Assembly (NCBI GenBank): GCA_016872015.1
Contig: VHBK01000001.1
Span: 38,235 to 102,234, forward strand
Source of the DNA: Nitrososphaerota archaeon
GTDB taxonomy: Archaea; Thermoproteota; Nitrososphaeria; Nitrososphaerales; Nitrosopumilaceae
Direction of reading: 5' to 3'
Length of the DNA stretch: 64,000 nucleotides
In this document: positions 37,792 through 47,152 of the stretch, piece after piece
Numbering within the stretch: position 1 is the first letter of the stretch
Layout: each line of letters starts with the position of its first letter
Position numbers and translations under genes: made by a program
The notes under the pieces: model-generated
The model's database searches: none
What the model saw: the letters and a program-made list of their open reading frames with translations, nothing else
What the model was told of the DNA's origin: nothing

Positions 37792-38492
37792 AATCTATCA
37801 TATTTTGCCAGGTTTTCATGTTTTGACAGCTTTGATAGTTTTGGCCCGCCAAGATATGTGGTAACATATGCAATTCCGCCAGCTATCATGCCTGTCGCAA
37901 AGACTAGGGCAAACACTGCTACTGGAAGCTTGACAATATCCATTAGGTATTGCGCTTGGTTTTGCTCGCCTTCTGCAAAGCTGACAAATCCAGTTCCAAC
38001 AAATCCTGCAACTATGAGAAGAATAGTAGTTGTTGCCCCTCCAACATTCATTCCGATTAGCTGAGTCCAGGCTAGCTTGGTTTTTGTTCCGCGCACTTGT
38101 TTTCCTAGATTTGATTCTAGGTGATTGTAGAAAATTGCGGTGATTGCTATTGCTACTACTAGTGTGATGTACATGAAATATCCAAAAAAGAACCATTTTG
38201 CAGGCCCATCAAGTGACAGTGACAAAAACTCTATCAGTGATACTTCGGAAAATATTGCTTGCATTAGGATCAATGAAACTGTTAATCCTGTTATGACTGC
38301 GCCTTGGATTATGGCAGATAATACGAATCTGTTGCCCCAGGGGCTAGGCTTTTTCTTGTCAGATACTTCCAAGAATCGCCTGCGTTCTGACTCTTTTTTC
38401 TCTATTTCTGCATAATCGTGGAATTTCTTTAGCAGCCTGGATTCTTCTTCCTCTGAAAAAAAGTCATCTACTGGACTATCCCATCTTGACAT
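37788..38492 (-). CDS. Four-TM hypothetical membrane protein
   Basis: Charged N-terminus then four hydrophobic segments. Confidence 0.75.
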   Translation of the reverse strand: MSRWDSPVDDFFSEEEESRLLKKFHDYAEIEKKESERRRFLEVSDKKKPSPWGNRFVLSAIIQGAVITGLTVSLILMQAIFSEVSLIEFLSLSLDGPAKWFFFGYFMYITLVVAIAITAIFYNHLESNLGKQVRGTKTKLAWTQLIGMNVGGATTTILLIVAGFVGTGFVSFAEGEQNQAQYLMDIVKLPVAVFALVFATGMIAGGIAYVTTYLGGPKLSKLSKHENLAKYDRF

Positions 38493-40627: not shown

Positions 40628-41827
40628 ATGGATTACGGACTAAAAAGCAGAATAGCAAGCATTCTGAAGCCAAACAACGGTAGAGGAGTAATGCTTGCAG
40701 TAGATCACGGTTATTTTCTTGGACCAACAGAAAAACTCGAAGTACCAAAAAGAACAATTTCTCCAATTGTGAGGTATTGTGACTCTTTGATGGTAACAAG
40801 AGGAGTAGTTAGAAGCTCAGTTGATCCAAATTTCCCAGTGCCAATTGTACTTCGAGTTTCAGGCGGCGCAAGCATCATTGGCGAAGACTTGTCCAATGAG
40901 GAAATCACAACTAGCATCAAAGATGCAATTAGAATTAATGCAACCGCAGTAACAATGTCTATCTTTGTAGGTGCAAAATATGAGCACAAATCCCTAGTCG
41001 GCCTAGGACACCTAGTAAACGAGGCAGAAGAATACGGCTTGCCGGTACTAGCTGTTACCGCAGTAGGAAAAGAACTAGCAAAGCGAGACGCAAGATACCT
41101 ATCATTATCATGCAGAATTGCAGCTGAATTTGGCGCACACATGGTAAAGACATACTATTGCGATGACTTTCAAAAAGTAGTCAACTCTTGCCCAGTGCCA
41201 ATTATCGTAGCTGGCGGACCAAAACTCCCAGAGCGCGATGCATTAGCCCTGACGTACAATTCCATCAAGGCAGGCGCTGCAGGCGTAGACATGGGACGAA
41301 ACATTTGGCAATCACAACACCCAGTAGCAATGATTAGGGCAGTACGAGCCATAGTCCACTCTAATTACAACTTGGACCAAGCATACAAGCTGTTCCAACA
41401 ACTAGCAAAGGGGCAACCAATACCACAAAACAGAGGCAACTTTAATCCAAACCAAAATCAAAACAGACCACAACAAAACAGGCCAAATCCGCAAGGAAAC
41501 AGACAAAACCAAAACAGAAACCAGCAAAGACGTCCACAACAAAACAGACCAAACAACCAAAACCGACCAAACCAAAAACCAGGACAACCAAATCAATCTA
41601 AACCAAATCAAAAACCAAACCAAGGCAAACCACAAAATCAAAACCGTCCTCAAAACAAACCACAACAAAAGCCAAACCAAACAAAACCAGCACAACAAAC
41701 AAAACCAGCACAACAACCAAAGCCAGCACAACAACCAAAGCCAGCACAACAACCAAAGCCAGCACAACAACCAAAGCCAGCCGCACAGCCAGCAACTCCG
41801 GCACCAGCAGCTCCAAAACCACAATAA
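40628..41827 (+). CDS. LsrF/DhnA-type class I aldolase with a Q/N/P/K-rich disordered tail
   Basis: LAVDHG, AAEFGAHMVKTYY, AGG, DMGRNIWQ; low-complexity C-terminal about 135 aa. Confidence 0.9.
   Translation: MDYGLKSRIASILKPNNGRGVMLAVDHGYFLGPTEKLEVPKRTISPIVRYCDSLMVTRGVVRSSVDPNFPVPIVLRVSGGASIIGEDLSNEEITTSIKDAIRINATAVTMSIFVGAKYEHKSLVGLGHLVNEAEEYGLPVLAVTAVGKELAKRDARYLSLSCRIAAEFGAHMVKTYYCDDFQKVVNSCPVPIIVAGGPKLPERDALALTYNSIKAGAAGVDMGRNIWQSQHPVAMIRAVRAIVHSNYNLDQAYKLFQQLAKGQPIPQNRGNFNPNQNQNRPQQNRPNPQGNRQNQNRNQQRRPQQNRPNNQNRPNQKPGQPNQSKPNQKPNQGKPQNQNRPQNKPQQKPNQTKPAQQTKPAQQPKPAQQPKPAQQPKPAQQPKPAAQPATPAPAAPKPQ
41681..41779 (+). repeat. 18-bp coding tandem repeat, 5.5 units of (T/P)KPAQQ
   Basis: ACAAAACCAGCACAACAA x2, CCAAAGCCAGCACAACAA x3, plus a partial unit. 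Confidence 0.95.
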
Positions 41828-41838
41828 AATTTTCTATT

Positions 41839-42240
41839 CTAAGAAATTTTTGATAGATGAATGTGAGCTATCTTCCAGCTCTCCTTTTTGACTAGGACAA
41901 AGGTAGCTCGTCCCTGAATCTCCATAAACTCGCCAGTGTACGCCTTGGTGTCTACTAGCATTCCTTTCTGTGTCAGCTCAAATGCCACCACTGCGACATC
42001 TCCAAAGATGCTAATCTTTGGATTCCTAATGGAATAATCGTAATCTGATATTGAGACAAATCGCAGCTCTTCTAATTCGACTGATGTCTTGTAGTCTTTG
42101 AGGTCATATGGGGGCAAGTCAGAAAACGAAGAAAACGCAGGATCATCTAGCTGAATTTCTCGCAACGGTGTGAGGTCTTTTGTTTTGCCTGCCTCAAAGA
42201 ATGTCTCTATTGTTTTGATAATGTCTTCTCTGTCTGTCAA
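41839..42240 (-). CDS. NTF2/SnoaL-like (DUF4440) protein
   Basis: IFGDVAVV...GRATFVLVK...WKIAHIHLS. Confidence 0.85.
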   Translation of the reverse strand: MTDREDIIKTIETFFEAGKTKDLTPLREIQLDDPAFSSFSDLPPYDLKDYKTSVELEELRFVSISDYDYSIRNPKISIFGDVAVVAFELTQKGMLVDTKAYTGEFMEIQGRATFVLVKKESWKIAHIHLSKIS

Positions 42241-42339
42241 GTGATTTTTTTGAGCCTGAGTCAGAGTTTAAGCCTTGGGATTTGGCTGTGTTGTGCCAAG
42301 CAATCTTTATAAGAATAATTTCGCTGTATCACTTTGAAT

Positions 42340-42396
42340 ATGTCACATAGCTTGACAGCACCATTTGTAGGACTGCTAGTCGAGCTGGTGCTGTAA
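42340..42396 (+). promoter_or_regulatory. Putative ilv leader peptide (18 aa) / attenuator
   Basis: MSHSLTAPFVGLLVELVL; TATA TTTATAAG 42306-13; alternative hairpins overlapping the ilvB SD. Confidence 0.6.
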
Positions 42397-42432
42397 ATTT
42401 ATACTACAGCGCGCATTTGTGGTGAATAAATC

Positions 42433-44121
42433 ATGGAAAAAATTTCAGGCGCAAGATCATTAATCAAAGCATTAGAAAAACAAGGAGTAAAAGAAATCTT
42501 CGGGCTACCGGGAGGTGCAAACCTTCCAATGTATGATGAGCTCTACAAGAGCAACATTAGACACATTCTAGTTAGACACGAACAGTCAGCTGCGCACATG
42601 GCAGACGGATTTGGCAGAGTTTCAAGACGTGCAGGTGTGTGCTTTGCAACATCTGGTCCTGGAGCTACTAACATTGTAACTGGTCTTGCAACTGCAAATG
42701 CAGACTCGGCACCAATGGTGGCAATAACAGGACAGGTACCAACCGCAATGATTGGCAGAGACGCATTTCAGGAAAGCGACATTATTGGAATAGCAAACCC
42801 AGTTGTGAAATATTCATTCCAGCCAACCAAGGCAACTGACATTCCAGAAGTAGTCAAAAAAGGATTTTACATTGCAGAGACGGGCAGGCCTGGCGCAGTA
42901 CTAATCGATATTCCTAAAGATGTTCAGACAAACGAAGCAGAGATGTCATTCCCAGAGGAAGTCAAAATCCGTGGATATCATCCATGGACTGATCCTGACG
43001 TTGTAGCAATAGAAAAAGCAATCAAGTTGTTGTTATCATCCACAAGACCTGTCATCCTAGCTGGTGGCGGTGTCATAATATCGTCGGCATTTGCGGAATT
43101 GCAGTCACTAGCTGAAATGCTAATGATTCCAGTGGTGTCTACATTCAAGGGCAAGGGGGCGTTTCCGGAAAACCATGCATTGTCCCTAGGTCCAATAGGC
43201 ATGCACGGACACGCAGAGGCAAACAAGATAATGTCCGAAGCGGATTGTGTGCTTGCTATTGGAACTCGCTTCTCTGACAGATCAGTTGGAACTTTTGCTG
43301 AATTTGAAAAGAATCTCAAAATCATACACCTAGATGTCGACCCAGCAGAAATTGGCAAAAACCAAACAACAAGTGTTGCCATAGTTGGCGATGTCAAAGC
43401 ATCATTGAGAATATTTGTTAAATTACTAATGCAAAAAGCGTTCAAAAAGACAGAAGAAAATGAATGGCTCAAGCACGTAAGCGAAGTAAAGCAATACTGG
43501 CACGATAATCTCAAGATACCTCAAGGAGAATTGACTGCAGCTAGAATAATGCGTAAATTGCGTGAGGTAATGCCTGCACAATCCATTGTAACAACAGAGG
43601 TAGGCCAGCACCAAATGTGGGCATCATTATTCTATGATGTGATATCTCCTGGAACTTTCTTTAGCTCAACTGGCCTAGGTACCATGGGTTGGGGATTCCC
43701 AGCAGCAATTGGTGCAAAGGCAGCTCGACCAGACTTGCCAGTAGTGGACATTGCAGGCGATGGAAGCTTTAACATGACAGAAAACTCGCTAGCTACATCG
43801 GTTCTAGATAACTTACCAGTGATTGTATTTTTAGTAAACAACTACACCCTAGGAATGGTTGCACAGTGGCAGAGAACATTCTATGACAGAAGAATGATTG
43901 GCGTTGACCAAAAAAGATGCCCAGACTATTGCAAGCTAGCAGAATCGTACGGCGCACAGGGAATTCGAGTGGGCGACCTAAACGAGCTAGGCCAAGCAAT
44001 CAAAGCGGGACTAAAGTCAGATGTTGCAACAGTAATTGACATTCCAATCGACCCAGAAGAAGACGTATTGCCGTTTGTAGCGCCAGGCACGTCACTTAAG
44101 GACATGATCCTACCATCATAG
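42433..44121 (+). CDS. ilvB: Acetolactate synthase large subunit
   Basis: LVRHEQ, ATSGPGATN, GQHQMW, GDGSF, SD GGTGA upstream. Confidence 0.97.
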   Translation: MEKISGARSLIKALEKQGVKEIFGLPGGANLPMYDELYKSNIRHILVRHEQSAAHMADGFGRVSRRAGVCFATSGPGATNIVTGLATANADSAPMVAITGQVPTAMIGRDAFQESDIIGIANPVVKYSFQPTKATDIPEVVKKGFYIAETGRPGAVLIDIPKDVQTNEAEMSFPEEVKIRGYHPWTDPDVVAIEKAIKLLLSSTRPVILAGGGVIISSAFAELQSLAEMLMIPVVSTFKGKGAFPENHALSLGPIGMHGHAEANKIMSEADCVLAIGTRFSDRSVGTFAEFEKNLKIIHLDVDPAEIGKNQTTSVAIVGDVKASLRIFVKLLMQKAFKKTEENEWLKHVSEVKQYWHDNLKIPQGELTAARIMRKLREVMPAQSIVTTEVGQHQMWASLFYDVISPGTFFSSTGLGTMGWGFPAAIGAKAARPDLPVVDIAGDGSFNMTENSLATSVLDNLPVIVFLVNNYTLGMVAQWQRTFYDRRMIGVDQKRCPDYCKLAESYGAQGIRVGDLNELGQAIKAGLKSDVATVIDIPIDPEEDVLPFVAPGTSLKDMILPS

Positions 44122-44130
44122 GTGTGTAAA

Positions 44131-44616
44131 ATGGTGTGGGCAATACTCTCAATTCTAGTAGAAAACAAACCTGGAATACTATTCAAGGTGACTCATTTGT
44201 TTCGCTCTAGAAACTTTAACATTGATTCAATCTCTGTAGGGGTGACTGAAAATCCGGAGCTTTCCAAGATGACAATTACCACAATAGGCGATGAAAAGCA
44301 GATTGGGCAAATTGTAAAGCAGCTAGACAAAATGATTGACACAATAGAGGTAAAGCGACTAGACGACAAAAAAACAGTATTCAGGGAGTTGTCGTTGTTT
44401 AGAGTCAAAGTATCCAAGCCGTCGGATTCCATGGAAATCAACAATATAGCAAACTCGTTTGGCGCCAAGGCTCACGATGCAAGAAAGGACTCTATCATGG
44501 TGGAACTCACTGCCACGCCTGAGCAGATCAACAATCTTCAAGAGCTACTTGCTCCATATGGTATACTAGACATTGCAAGAACTGGCGTTGCTGCACTACA
44601 AAGGGGCGGGGACTGA
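44131..44616 (+). CDS. ilvH: Acetolactate synthase small (regulatory) subunit
   Basis: LVENKPGIL..VTHLF..RNFNIDSISVG ACT domain. Confidence 0.95.
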   Translation: MVWAILSILVENKPGILFKVTHLFRSRNFNIDSISVGVTENPELSKMTITTIGDEKQIGQIVKQLDKMIDTIEVKRLDDKKTVFRELSLFRVKVSKPSDSMEINNIANSFGAKAHDARKDSIMVELTATPEQINNLQELLAPYGILDIARTGVAALQRGGD

Positions 44617-46133
44617 TGCGAGTTAGAATATTTGATACCACACTACGAGACGGAGAGCAAACCCCGGGAGTAGCATTATCTCCAGAAAAAAAGCTAGCAA
44701 TAGCAAAAAGACTAGATGAATTAGGAGTGGACGCAATAGAAGCAGGCTTTCCAGTGATATCAGAAGGAGAACAACAAGGAATCAAGCTAATTACTAAAGC
44801 AGGACTACGCGCAGAGATTTGCGGCCTAGCTAGGACCAACAAAAAGGATATCGATGCAGCAATTGATTGCGGCCTAAAGTACATTCACACATTCATTGCA
44901 ACATCTGACATTCACTTACAATACAAGCTAAAGATGAGCCGCGAGCAGGCGCTAGCAAAGGCAATCGAGGCAGTAGAATATGGCAAGTCACACGGATTAC
45001 AGGTAGAGTTTTCAGCAGAAGATGCCACAAGAACAGACCGTGCATTTCTAAAGCATGTCTTTGGCGAAGTAGCTAAAGCAGGTGCAGACAGAATAGACAT
45101 TCCCGATACTGTGGGTTATTCGACACCACAATACATTGCAGAAATTACCAGAGATGCAATTGACGCAACCAAGCTACCAGTATCAGTCCACTGCCACAAT
45201 GACTTTGGCCTGGCAGTTGCAAATGCAATATCTGGCGTACAGGCAGGTGCTGCATGTGCACATGTAACAATTAACGGAATTGGCGAGCGGGCGGGAAATG
45301 CATCGCTTGAGGAATTTGTAATGGCGTTGCAATGTTTACAGTTTGGTGATCAGAAATGGGAAACTGGAATCAACACCAAGCTACTATACGAGACTTCAAA
45401 ATTTGTATCAAACCTAGTTGGAATCAAGGTCCAGCCAAACAAAGCTATAGTTGGCGAGAATGCATTTGGCCACGAATCTGGAATCCACACACACGGTATA
45501 CTAAACAATCCATTGACATACGAGCCAATCAGTCCGGAACTAGTCGGCAGAACTCGCTGGCTCCAAGTTGGCAAGCACGCAGGAATTCACGGAGTTTCTG
45601 CAATGCTAGAAGAATATGGAGTCAAGCCAAACGAGGACCAACTAAAGCAGATCCTAGACAAAGTCAAAGCAATCGGTGACCAAGGAAAGCAGGTAACCGA
45701 AGTGGAGCTAGTATCAATTGCAAATGAAATTCTATCAGAGCATCCAATCAAAAGAATTGTTCAGCTTGCTGGCTTTTCAGTTTCTACGGGTATTGGTACA
45801 ATGCCATATGCGTTTGTCAAGCTAAACATTGACGGTGTTGATTACAGTGGAACCGACTTTGGGGTAGGTCCAGTCGATGCGGCAATCAATGCCATTCAGA
45901 AAACCACCGGAGAAATAGCAAAGGTCCGAGTAAAAGAATACAAACTGGATTCCATTTCTGGCGGAGCAGACGCACTATGTGAGGTTACAATAAAGGTAGA
46001 GGATGCATATGGGAATGTCGCGTCTGCCAAATCAATTGGCGAGGATATCGTCACAACAAGCGTCCAGGCAGTAATAGAAGGAATAAACCGAATCATGTTC
46101 AAAAACACACTAAAGCAGAAAAAACTGGGTTAG
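44616..46133 (+). CDS. leuA: 2-isopropylmalate synthase / citramalate synthase family
   Basis: DTTLRDGEQ, HCHNDFG, GIGERAGN, C-terminal regulatory domain; leuA vs cimA not resolved. Confidence 0.9.
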   Translation: MRVRIFDTTLRDGEQTPGVALSPEKKLAIAKRLDELGVDAIEAGFPVISEGEQQGIKLITKAGLRAEICGLARTNKKDIDAAIDCGLKYIHTFIATSDIHLQYKLKMSREQALAKAIEAVEYGKSHGLQVEFSAEDATRTDRAFLKHVFGEVAKAGADRIDIPDTVGYSTPQYIAEITRDAIDATKLPVSVHCHNDFGLAVANAISGVQAGAACAHVTINGIGERAGNASLEEFVMALQCLQFGDQKWETGINTKLLYETSKFVSNLVGIKVQPNKAIVGENAFGHESGIHTHGILNNPLTYEPISPELVGRTRWLQVGKHAGIHGVSAMLEEYGVKPNEDQLKQILDKVKAIGDQGKQVTEVELVSIANEILSEHPIKRIVQLAGFSVSTGIGTMPYAFVKLNIDGVDYSGTDFGVGPVDAAINAIQKTTGEIAKVRVKEYKLDSISGGADALCEVTIKVEDAYGNVASAKSIGEDIVTTSVQAVIEGINRIMFKNTLKQKKLG

Positions 46134-46138
46134 CTAAC

Positions 46139-47152
46139 TTGTACAAGATTTCATTAATTACCGGAGACGGCATAGGGCCAGAATTATCCGAGTCTGTTGT
46201 CTCTGTGTTAAATACAATCCATGATAGATTAGATGTCAAGTTCGATGTTCAGAAATTACTAGCTGGAGATGTTGCACTAAAACAGTACGGAAAGGCATTA
46301 CCTGATCAAACACTAGATGCGATCAAAAAGTCTGATGTCTGCATGAAGGCACCGGTAGGTGAATCAGCTGCAGATGTAATCGTGGTATTGCGTAGAATGC
46401 TGGATTTGTATGCAAATATTCGGCCTGCAAAATCGTATCCTGGAATGAATGCACTAAAAGACGGAATAGACATGGTGATTGTTCGCGAAAACACCGAGGA
46501 CTTGTACACCGGGCAGGAGTTTGAGACGCCAGGCGCAGCGGTAGCATTTAGGATTATTTCGGAAAAGGCATCTGCAAAAATTGCAAAATATGCATTTGAG
46601 ACGGCAAAGCAGAGAAATGGCAAAAAGCGTGTCACATGTGTGCACAAATCAAATGTTATGAGAAAAACAGATGGCTTGTTTTCCAGAGTTTGTGCAGATG
46701 TTGCAAAATCATACTCGGATGTACAATTTGATCAAATGTATGTAGATGCATGCGCAATGAATCTAATTCGAAGACCTGAAACATTTGATGTCATAGTAAC
46801 TACGAATCTCTTTGGTGATATCTTATCTGACGAGTCATCTGAGGTAGTTGGTGGTTTGGGAATGGCACCAGCTGCAAATATCGGAGATAATTTTGCCTTG
46901 TTTGAGCCGGTTCATGGTGCGGCATTTGACATTGCTGGCAAAGGAATTGCAAACCCATCTTCGTTCATCTTGTCTGCAAAAATGATGCTAGAGTGGCTGG
47001 GTAAAAAACACAATGACTCTAAATGCTTTGAGGTTGCCAAAAAGCTGGAATCTGCTGTATATGGCGTTGTCAATAAAGGAATCAAGACTGTGGATATTGG
47101 CGGCACAAAAACTACTACGGAATTTACTAAAGAAATAGTTTCTTTGCTGTGA
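46139..47152 (+). CDS. leuB: 3-isopropylmalate/isocitrate dehydrogenase family
   Basis: GDGIGPE, RENTEDLY, NLFGDILSD, EPVHGAA; operon context. Confidence 0.88.
   Translation: MYKISLITGDGIGPELSESVVSVLNTIHDRLDVKFDVQKLLAGDVALKQYGKALPDQTLDAIKKSDVCMKAPVGESAADVIVVLRRMLDLYANIRPAKSYPGMNALKDGIDMVIVRENTEDLYTGQEFETPGAAVAFRIISEKASAKIAKYAFETAKQRNGKKRVTCVHKSNVMRKTDGLFSRVCADVAKSYSDVQFDQMYVDACAMNLIRRPETFDVIVTTNLFGDILSDESSEVVGGLGMAPAANIGDNFALFEPVHGAAFDIAGKGIANPSSFILSAKMMLEWLGKKHNDSKCFEVAKKLESAVYGVVNKGIKTVDIGGTKTTTEFTKEIVSLL

Follow-up and report, generated by a model that had tools for sequence, protein, structure and literature searches.

Upstream of the ilvB-ilvH-leuA-leuB operon of an ammonia-oxidizing archaeon of the family Nitrosopumilaceae lies a leader that we regard as the best candidate so far for ribosome-sensed gene control in Archaea. 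The leader was analyzed within a stretch of 64,000 nucleotides (nt) of DNA (positions 38,235 to 102,234 of contig VHBK01000001.1, assembly GCA_016872015.1), referred to here as the window, whose own numbering is used for all coordinates. The window genome is a Candidatus Nitrosotenuis; in a homologue search, its IlvB was 98% identical to that of Candidatus Nitrosotenuis aquarius. At the core of the leader is an upstream open reading frame (uORF) of 18 codons, which represents a conserved, family-wide, and unannotated branched-chain amino acid (BCAA) leader open reading frame (ORF) upstream of ilvB, far beyond what chance would give. The leader is most likely a ribosome-mediated attenuator of a new, non-classical architecture, and we consider it probable that it acts in cis as a ribosome-sensed leader of the ilvBH-leuAB operon. 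With somewhat more reserve, we propose that it is the first leader-peptide (ribosome-mediated) attenuation system in Archaea, one that would extend across the Nitrosopumilaceae and in which the position of the ribosome at the uORF end, and not an alternative 2:3 helix, would serve as the switch, with no antiterminator and with ilvB starting at a constant distance of ∼30 nt downstream.

A BCAA-rich leader ORF is conserved in the Nitrosopumilaceae

The comparison draws on ∼95 Nitrosopumilaceae loci with upstream sequence, retrieved by IlvB scans of species-representative genomes and Joint Genome Institute (JGI) metagenomes and supplemented with eight further loci of the Nitrosotenuis clade (individual loci are cited by L numbers). 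The genome scan with IlvB yielded only Nitrosopumilaceae and distant taxa, and every hit in the homologue search had an identity of 85% or more; all uORF and hairpin conservation counts given here cover Nitrosopumilaceae loci. The best 50%-cluster IlvB representative, tried as a route to the Nitrososphaerales, proved to be a Synergistaceae protein.

The uORF, which is not annotated as a gene in public records, has Leu or Val at 8 of its 18 residues and at 7 of the last 9. A frame was counted as a matching uORF if it began with ATG, comprised at least 15 codons, carried Leu, Ile, or Val at five or more of its seven terminal codons with Leu as the last, and stopped 20 to 80 nt before ilvB. Such a frame was present in 72 of 88 distinct ilvB upstream regions, compared with 0.26% of mononucleotide shuffles. 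Leu, Ile, and Val account for 5.5 of the last 7 uORF codons, as against 24% of the codons in window genes. Within the window, the BCAA-rich uORF is unique among 37 small upstream ORFs, and the leader element occurs only upstream of the cognate BCAA operon. A preliminary description of this DNA, made from the sequence alone, had placed a Leu/Val-rich, near-leaderless uORF at the head of ilvB-ilvH-leuA-leuB and had advised a search for it in relatives; both the operon (by NCBIfam assignment) and the conservation of the uORF within the family are borne out, and the coordinates and sequences it gave for the TATA box, the uORF, the GGTGA motif, and the ilvB ATG were all correct on rechecking.

The uORF has changed in the manner of a coding sequence. 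Its final residue is Leu in 75 of 75 loci through five different codons (CTG, CTA, CTT, TTG, and CTC); counting back from the stop, Leu at position -7 is kept through TTG, CTG, and TTA and Val at position -5 through GTT, GTC, and GTA. The frame is open in all 75 loci, and the two alternative frames contain stops in 56 and 73 of them. Column entropy follows the coding order, with codon position 2 (0.78) below position 1 (1.05) and position 1 below position 3 (1.36). The N-terminal half varies between clades (MKLGGSASISS., MTKVDSTSISS., MNKISQTSIVG., and MSTKLTGTFDK.), and the C termini converge on [ILV]-L-L-V-[DE]-L-x-L-stop or V-V-[VI]-L-L-stop. In Nitrosopumilus-type loci, the Leu/Ile/Val tail is retained though its codons fall outside any predicted helix; the tail bias is therefore not merely a by-product of RNA pairing. 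Together with the promoter geometry described below, this coding-type conservation suggests that the uORF is translated.

Some clades carry variants of the uORF. Eight loci of a marine clade (L122, L127, L135, L143, L146, L148, L150, and L155) lack the BCAA-rich uORF; what they retain is a degenerate ORF of ∼21 codons that has no Leu/Val tail and terminates in the T-run, an arrangement reminiscent of a decayed sensor. In a few loci outside this clade, too, the uORF is missing or degenerate. The "MKLGGS" clade (L008, L090, L092, L093, L098, L104, L109, and L120) has a perfect AGGAGG in uORF codons 3 to 5, 7 nt past the ATG. The idea that the uORF tail consists of rare codons was discarded, given that CTA and CTG are not rare here.

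The uORF is predicted to be leaderless and cotranscribed with ilvB

The uORF is preceded by a B recognition element (BRE)-like sequence and a TATA box (Table 1). The motif AATnTTTATWAaTTAT is conserved in all clades, and its 8-mer ends 25 to 31 nt (mode, 28 nt) before the uORF ATG; in other window genes with clear TATA boxes, the box ends 24 to 27 nt before the ATG. Because the TATA-to-ATG distance is like that of these leaderless-type window genes, the uORF is predicted to be leaderless or nearly so, with transcription probably starting within a few nt of its ATG. A promoter weight matrix built from the leader promoters, with which a second promoter was to be scored, was over-fitted to homologous sequence and uninformative, and a bacterial sigma-70 scan was negative or irrelevant.

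The Shine-Dalgarno sequence (SD) of ilvB resembles the AGGTG used by ilvH and is thus of the internal-cistron kind. An SD at this place implies a leadered mRNA for ilvB, shared with the uORF. Nitrosotalea-type loci, in which the 29-nt gap between the uORF and ilvB holds no TATA-like sequence, also favor cotranscription, and we infer that the uORF and ilvB are transcribed together.

Conserved hairpins incorporate the terminal codons of the uORF

The minimum free energy (MFE) fold of the window leader (-32.4 kcal/mol; z = -3.16) comprises hairpin P1, hairpin P2, which adjoins P1, and a weak G.U-rich hairpin over the ilvB SD and ATG. P1, which the preliminary description had missed, is a 15-pair hairpin contained entirely in the uORF. 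P2 extends over the stop codon and corresponds to the helix that the same description had named 2:3, lengthened to 8 bp; this helix thus stands, as a conserved element. P1 and P2 are found in the MFE fold of essentially every sequence from the Nitrosotenuis, Nitrosotalea, "MKLGGS", and deep-marine clades.

Several comparisons support the two hairpins. In a nearly gap-free alignment of 37 non-Nitrosotenuis sequences (A2), 84% of the P1/P2 cells are paired, compared with 15 to 49% when the partners are slid. A covariance model (R1) built on this gap-free sub-alignment recovers the equivalent place in all Nitrosotenuis loci, though that clade was not used in model building, and its only hit in the window is the leader itself (Table 1). 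In sequences held out of R1, 91% of cells are paired and 9 of 17 pairs show compensatory changes, a result that none of 500 shuffles reaches, in an alignment that is fitted to the structure and so leans towards pairing. Within Nitrosotenuis, 98.9% of P1/P2 cells are paired, and every variable position is a change from A-U to G-U, from C-G to U-G, or from U-G to C-G; in L164 and L168, a U-to-C change at codon -2 converts a G.U pair of P2 to G-C. In marine clades, the synonymous Leu codon at -3 (CTG, CTT, or CTA) is matched by CAG, CAA, or TAG after the hairpin. In Nitrosopumilus and Nitrosarchaeum, a long-range stem, P0, in which the first uORF codons pair with the sequence just past the stop, largely takes the place of local P2; P0 has compensatory changes of its own (GAGCAC/GTGCTC, GACCACA/TGTGGTC, GGATAC/GTGTCC, and GAGTGC/GTACTC). 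The P1/P2 covariation counts involve related sequences, with few independent events inside the LLVDL clades. Because the clades differ in loop length, RNAalifold gave no consensus for a raw MAFFT alignment that spanned all of them; A2, the covariance model, and per-sequence folds were used instead. A search of positions 41800 to 42900 against Rfam 15, which includes the bacterial amino-acid leaders, gave at E values up to 10 only a chance microRNA (miRNA) match inside ilvB.

The preliminary description had embedded helix 2:3 in a switch: helices 1:2 and 3:4 would alternate with 2:3, 3:4 would occlude the ilvB SD when the ribosome reaches the stop, and stalling at Leu/Val codons would expose it. 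The three complementarities do exist in the sequence, and alone 1:2 is worth -13.1 kcal/mol and 3:4 a weak -4.7 kcal/mol; only 2:3, however, proved meaningful. For the free RNA, the pair probability averages 0.000 over 1:2, 0.984 over 2:3, and 0.002 over 3:4, and the best fold holding 1:2 and 3:4 (-25.7 kcal/mol) is 6.7 kcal/mol worse than the MFE fold; in these models, 1:2 is out-competed by P1. Moreover, the 22-nt gap between segments 1 and 2 is smaller than a ribosome footprint, so that 1:2 could not form around a ribosome stalled between them. Within Nitrosotenuis, 1:2 is 80% paired and 3:4 is 86% paired, but four of the 9 pairs of 1:2 are broken in 2 to 6 of 11 sequences and two of the 7 pairs of 3:4 in 4 to 6 of 11, the central pairs being lost in roughly half of the sequences. 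Of the covarying stems for which the description had advised a search, P1 and P2 show compensatory changes; 1:2 and 3:4 show no covariation and have no equivalent in other genera. As modelled stalls leave SD accessibility unchanged in 21 of 21 window-group sequences, the stall-dependent exposure of the SD likewise lacks support. Comparison thus largely refutes this exact switch, which we consider scarcely credible.

One clade shows arrangements that recall the classical scheme. In L084, L162, and L167 (e.g., L162 475-564), there are four copies of AACTAG/CTAGTT, two within P1 and two immediately past the stop, where a T4 follows, which gives classical-looking 1:2, 2:3, and 3:4 alternatives that are lacking in other clades.

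The spacer and the ilvB start

In the window, a spacer of 36 nt separates the uORF stop from the ilvB start, and both the T-run and the ribosome-binding site of ilvB lie in it. The length of this gap is constant, at 27 to 36 nt, over all clades. Across the window's group the gap is 26 to 33 nt (29 to 36 nt if the stop codon is counted), compared with 27 to 33 nt in marine and Nitrosopumilus-type clades, where it is reckoned from the TTAAAATTATGG start. TTAAAATTATGG is conserved in these latter clades, 24 nt before the homology-defined ilvB ATG. In 24 of 52 distinct loci, the frame of its ATG continues into ilvB and adds the eight codons M-E-[KR]-N-L-[MI]-N-K; in 21 further loci, the frame it opens ends within -1 to +4 nt of an ilvB-frame ATG. 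The context of this ATG resembles the ilvB start of the window's group (AAAATTATGGAA). TTAAAATTATGG is thus probably the true or ancestral ilvB start (L004 2940-3003, L110, L121, L160, and ∼50 other loci), and the IlvB N termini of marine Nitrosopumilaceae may be misannotated. An earlier reading of TTAAAATTATGG as a second TATA box or promoter in marine clades has largely given way to this start context and to a hairpin, P3.

P3 is found in the marine and Nitrosopumilus-type clades (e.g., L121 1444-1482), where the T-run and the nucleotides after P2 pair with an A-run and ATGGNN. Its 5' arm consists of the T-run together with nucleotides shared in part with the 3' arm of P2 or P0, and the ilvB ATG lies within the hairpin. 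The second codon of ilvB covaries with this arm (GGTG-CCA, GGAC-GTCC, GGAG-CTC, and GGCG-TGCT). The general logic of the preliminary description was that ribosomes held upstream would leave the stop-codon hairpin folded, while ribosomes at the stop would melt it and free its 3' arm. P3 is the kind of 3:4 element which that logic needs and lends it some support in marine clades, a case weakened by nearest-neighbor modelling, in which start-codon accessibility in the P3 clades changes only slightly with ribosome position; the window's clade, which has an SD instead, has no P3 equivalent and lends none.

P3 persists in the clade that lacks the uORF. Two further pairings were rejected: a pseudoknot between the P2 loop and the SD-ATG spacer is marginal (-2.7 kcal/mol) and confined to Nitrosotenuis, the loops of other clades being 3 to 5 nt long, and a mycobacterial-type pairing of the mRNA 5' end with the ilvB ribosome-binding site was no better than in shuffles.

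Proposed mechanism

The effect of ribosome position was modelled crudely, by masking a 27-nt footprint at successive A-site positions. The probability of P2 is about 0.8 for all modelled stalls upstream of codon -5 (0.66 to 0.86 at codons -10 to -6) and 0.51 at codon -5; it falls to zero, through direct coverage, when the A-site occupies codon -4 or any later position up to the stop. Since the tail codons make up both the 3' arm of P1 and the 5' arm of P2, the position of the ribosome would decide which hairpin exists.

In the mechanism that we propose, ribosomes would load on the 5'-terminal AUG of an mRNA that begins within a few nt of the uORF and would translate its 18 codons, the last 9 to 12 of which are almost all Ile, Leu, or Val. 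Their speed across this tail would report the supply of charged tRNA-Leu, tRNA-Val, and tRNA-Ile. A ribosome held at codons -12 to -5 is modelled to keep P1 open and let P2 fold, while one at codon -4 to the stop would open P2 and free its 3' arm. The state of P2 would then set operon expression through the 36-nt spacer.

The sign and the level of control we infer with caution. We hold tentatively to an output at the level of translation, in which use of the ilvB start site is governed either by the P2 3' arm once it is free or by the ribosome that terminates. Conditional termination at P2 and the U-tract, at the level of transcription, seems doubtful and is rated below it, because we found no way round the wrong sign discussed below without an antiterminator. 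We are no less doubtful of other ribosome-dependent outputs, such as stalled ribosomes that shield the mRNA, interference with a second promoter, or peptide-mediated arrest. That the leader exerts no regulation at all appears improbable.

Contrary evidence and alternative explanations

A number of observations weigh against a ribosome-sensed attenuator. No antiterminator or anti-sequestor pairing was found in the window with the footprint model; no alternative pairing displaces P2, and a classical antiterminator or anti-sequestor is therefore lacking. The unpaired probability of the ilvB SD (0.26 to 0.75 in the 21 window-group sequences) is flat across stalls. With the stop codon inside P2, a fast ribosome close behind would keep the hairpin from forming, and under starvation the hairpin could form; in this modelled, purely cotranscriptional geometry the sign is wrong for a biosynthetic operon. 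The LLVE codons are also held by P1 pairing, so that part of their conservation lies at the RNA level. After P2, the window has only three T residues and fails a bacterial-type terminator scan, which L001 also failed. Within the P2 loop, a TATA-like TTTATACT (42398-42405) occurs 27 nt upstream of the ilvB ATG, much as 26 nt separate the TATA box of the leader from the uORF ATG; this spacing would be compatible with an internal ilvB promoter. Finally, no RNA run was found to contain the window, metatranscriptome contigs on relatives are sparse, those from soil on the Nitrosotalea locus L006 stop short of the leader, and marine contigs on L131 cover the promoter as well as the uORF and ilvB and may therefore be DNA.

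Classical transcription attenuation would treat P2 and the U-tract as a terminator that is blocked by a ribosome on the last codons and otherwise stops transcription before ilvB. A run of at least four T residues follows P2 in 46 of 67 distinct relatives (69%), compared with 31% of intergenic 30-mers, and in 42 of the 46 the first T4 begins +13 to +17 past the uORF stop. The Nitrosotenuis stem is GC rich and 8 to 10 bp long, with T4 to T6 in L001, L014, L086, L161, and L164; where the Nitrosopumilus-type stem has been rebuilt as P0, a T-run still follows. U-tracts are the archaeal termination signal, but archaeal termination does not require hairpins (PMC7515710), and in marine clades the T-run can also be accounted for by P3, in which it forms the 5' arm and pairs with the A-run that precedes the ilvB ATG. 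Beyond the missing antiterminator and the short T-run and failed scans noted above, the stop within the hairpin amounts to pyrBI-type coupling, in which a fast ribosome leads to read-through, the wrong sign for BCAA feedback. We consider this explanation unlikely.

Two further explanations dispense with ribosome sensing, and both strike us as highly improbable. P1 and P2 might form an RNA-only element, protein bound or structural, within which the open frame is incidental and untranslated. Their strong conservation fits, as does the coincidence of the most conserved codons (LLV[DE]L and CTG-TAA) with helix arms. Such an element, however, would not account for a frame that is open in every locus while the other frames are closed, for an ATG at a fixed distance from the TATA box, for a last Leu kept through five codons, for third positions that are the most variable, or for a Leu/Ile/Val tail kept where its codons are unpaired. 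Alternatively, the uORF might be a separate mini-gene for a small, functional hydrophobic protein with a terminator of its own, ilvB being transcribed from a promoter at TTTATACT. The spacing of that TATA-like box, the hairpin and T-run after the uORF, and the continued expression of ilvB in clades without the uORF speak for this. Against it, 18 to 20 residues with an 8-residue hydrophobic end are too short for a membrane span, the N-terminal half is not conserved between clades, the linkage to ilvB is strict (a gap of 27 to 36 nt), an SD placed 7 nt ahead of the ilvB ATG calls for an mRNA with a leader, and the Nitrosotalea-type gap offers no TATA-like sequence. A ribosome-mediated attenuator of non-classical architecture remains the reading that we prefer.

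Organization of the locus

The order ilvB-ilvH-leuA-leuB is also found in relatives. The likelier start of ilvH is the ATG at 44131, with AGGTG 6 nt upstream, rather than the listed GTG at 44122 (window 44119-44135), and gene calls for ilvH in relatives likewise begin 8 to 12 nt past the ilvB stop. The SnoaL-like gene is a conserved divergent neighbor in most Nitrosopumilaceae loci (also L131 912-1316, minus strand), and its promoter and the leader promoter occupy a common region of ∼100 nt. In a further ORF of 399 amino acids (window 40628-41827), a DeoC/LacD-type aldolase domain is limited to residues 1 to 259, and the C-terminal 140 residues have no match in NCBIfam or Pfam.

Table 1. Features of the ilvB leader and its surroundings in the window
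Feature	Coordinates	Strand	Basis or remarks
Leader promoter: BRE-like GCAATC and TATA box TTTATAAG (42306-13)	42300..42313	+	26 nt before the uORF ATG
Leader element matched by covariance model R1	42337..42424	+	24 bits, E about 0.03; sole hit in the 64-kb window
Putative leader ORF (uORF), 18 codons and TAA, MSHSLTAPFVGLLVELVL followed by stop	42340..42396	+	ATG 42340, TAA 42394-96; coding-type conservation
P1 5' arm, codons 3-8, UAGCUUGACAGCACC	42348..42362	+	MFE fold; P1 alone -17.4 kcal/mol
P1 3' arm, codons 11-16 (G-L-L-V-E-L codons)	42370..42387	+	MFE fold; made of the regulatory Leu/Val codons
P2 5' arm, GUGCUGUA, last two sense codons and first two stop bases	42388..42395	+	P2 alone -10.7 kcal/mol; pair probability 0.984
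P2 3' arm, UACAGCGC	42405..42412	+	MFE fold; genus comparison
Short T-run TTT, 4 nt after P2	42416..42418	+	T4-T6 in close relatives
ilvB SD, GGTGA	42421..42425	+	7 nt before ATG; GGTGA/GGAGA conserved in the window's group
ilvB	42433-44121	+	NCBIfam TIGR00118, 714 bits; ATG at 42433
leuA	44616-46133	+	NCBIfam
leuB-type (isopropylmalate-type) dehydrogenase	46139-47152	+	NCBIfam
Operon ilvB-ilvH-leuA-leuB(type), presumed controlled unit	42433..47152	+	NCBIfam and Pfam
SnoaL-like gene, 133 amino acids, divergent neighbor	41839-42240	-	Not a regulator

Comparison with known systems

To our knowledge, almost nothing is known about how archaeal genes are regulated once promoter recruitment has taken place. 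The principle of leader-peptide attenuation has been summarized (10.1101/834739), and one source states explicitly that no archaeal attenuation is known (PMC8448881). The literature that we searched held no example of archaeal leader-peptide attenuation, in agreement with the preliminary description, whose author was not aware of such attenuation having been established for archaeal ilv operons. If the proposed mechanism is true, the coupling of amino-acid supply to expression through the translating ribosome would also have evolved on leaderless archaeal mRNAs. The leader is directly testable in cultured ammonia oxidizers (Nitrosotenuis, Nitrosotalea, Nitrosarchaeum, and Nitrosopumilus), with ∼75 natural sequence variants as a ready-made mutational series, and it adds an unannotated, putatively translated ORF to the genomes of these abundant organisms.

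The ilv and leu operons of Escherichia coli and Salmonella are controlled by leader-peptide attenuators. The window leader shares with the enterobacterial ilvBN, ilvGMEDA, and leu leaders a short ORF rich in end-product codons directly upstream of a BCAA operon, regulatory codons incorporated into the arms of hairpins, and, ahead of the first structural gene, a hairpin with T residues behind it. It differs in belonging to an archaeon, with a TATA/BRE promoter and a uORF predicted to be near-leaderless; in having its regulatory codons at the end of the ORF and the stop inside the terminator-like hairpin; in the lack of a detected antiterminator (2:3-type alternative) and of any Rfam match; and in a U-tract that is short or absent in a third of its members. 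Measured against the classical attenuator class, end-product codons are enriched upstream of the cognate operon, but the antiterminator is missing.

The E. coli pyrBI and pyrE coupling attenuators sense nucleotide supply through polymerase speed, with a leader that has no codon bias. There, too, the leader ORF enters the terminator hairpin, which a close ribosome physically blocks. The window leader, in contrast, is marked by BCAA codon bias, and the sign predicted from the shared geometry is wrong for feedback.

Corynebacterium glutamicum ilvBNC has a leaderless leader peptide rich in Val, Ile, and Leu upstream of ilvB, for which a three-hairpin model exists (PMC11857589, PMC10272879); PMC13158618 cites Morbach et al. 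2000 for this leader. As in the window, a BCAA-rich leader peptide that is translated without a ribosome-binding site precedes ilvB (in the window, its translation is predicted). The C. glutamicum leader is bacterial and has neither sequence nor structural homology to the window leader, and its terminator/antiterminator alternative, which is backed by mutations, has no counterpart found in the latter.

The mycobacterial polycysteine leaderless small ORFs (sORFs) were shown to control the downstream gene at translation, not at termination (10.1101/834739). In these, the downstream SD is sequestered by a defined structure, whereas predictions for the window leave the SD open wherever the ribosome stands. 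An SD or start codon that is paired in the ground state and released by a stall, as in a translational attenuator of this or the erm/cat type, was not found in the window's group; unlike mycobacterial SD sequestration, the start-codon hairpin P3 occurs only in marine relatives. In architecture, the polycysteine sORFs are nevertheless the closest match to the window leader: a leaderless uORF (in the window, predicted to be so) forms the first cistron, and runs of cognate codons lie near its end.

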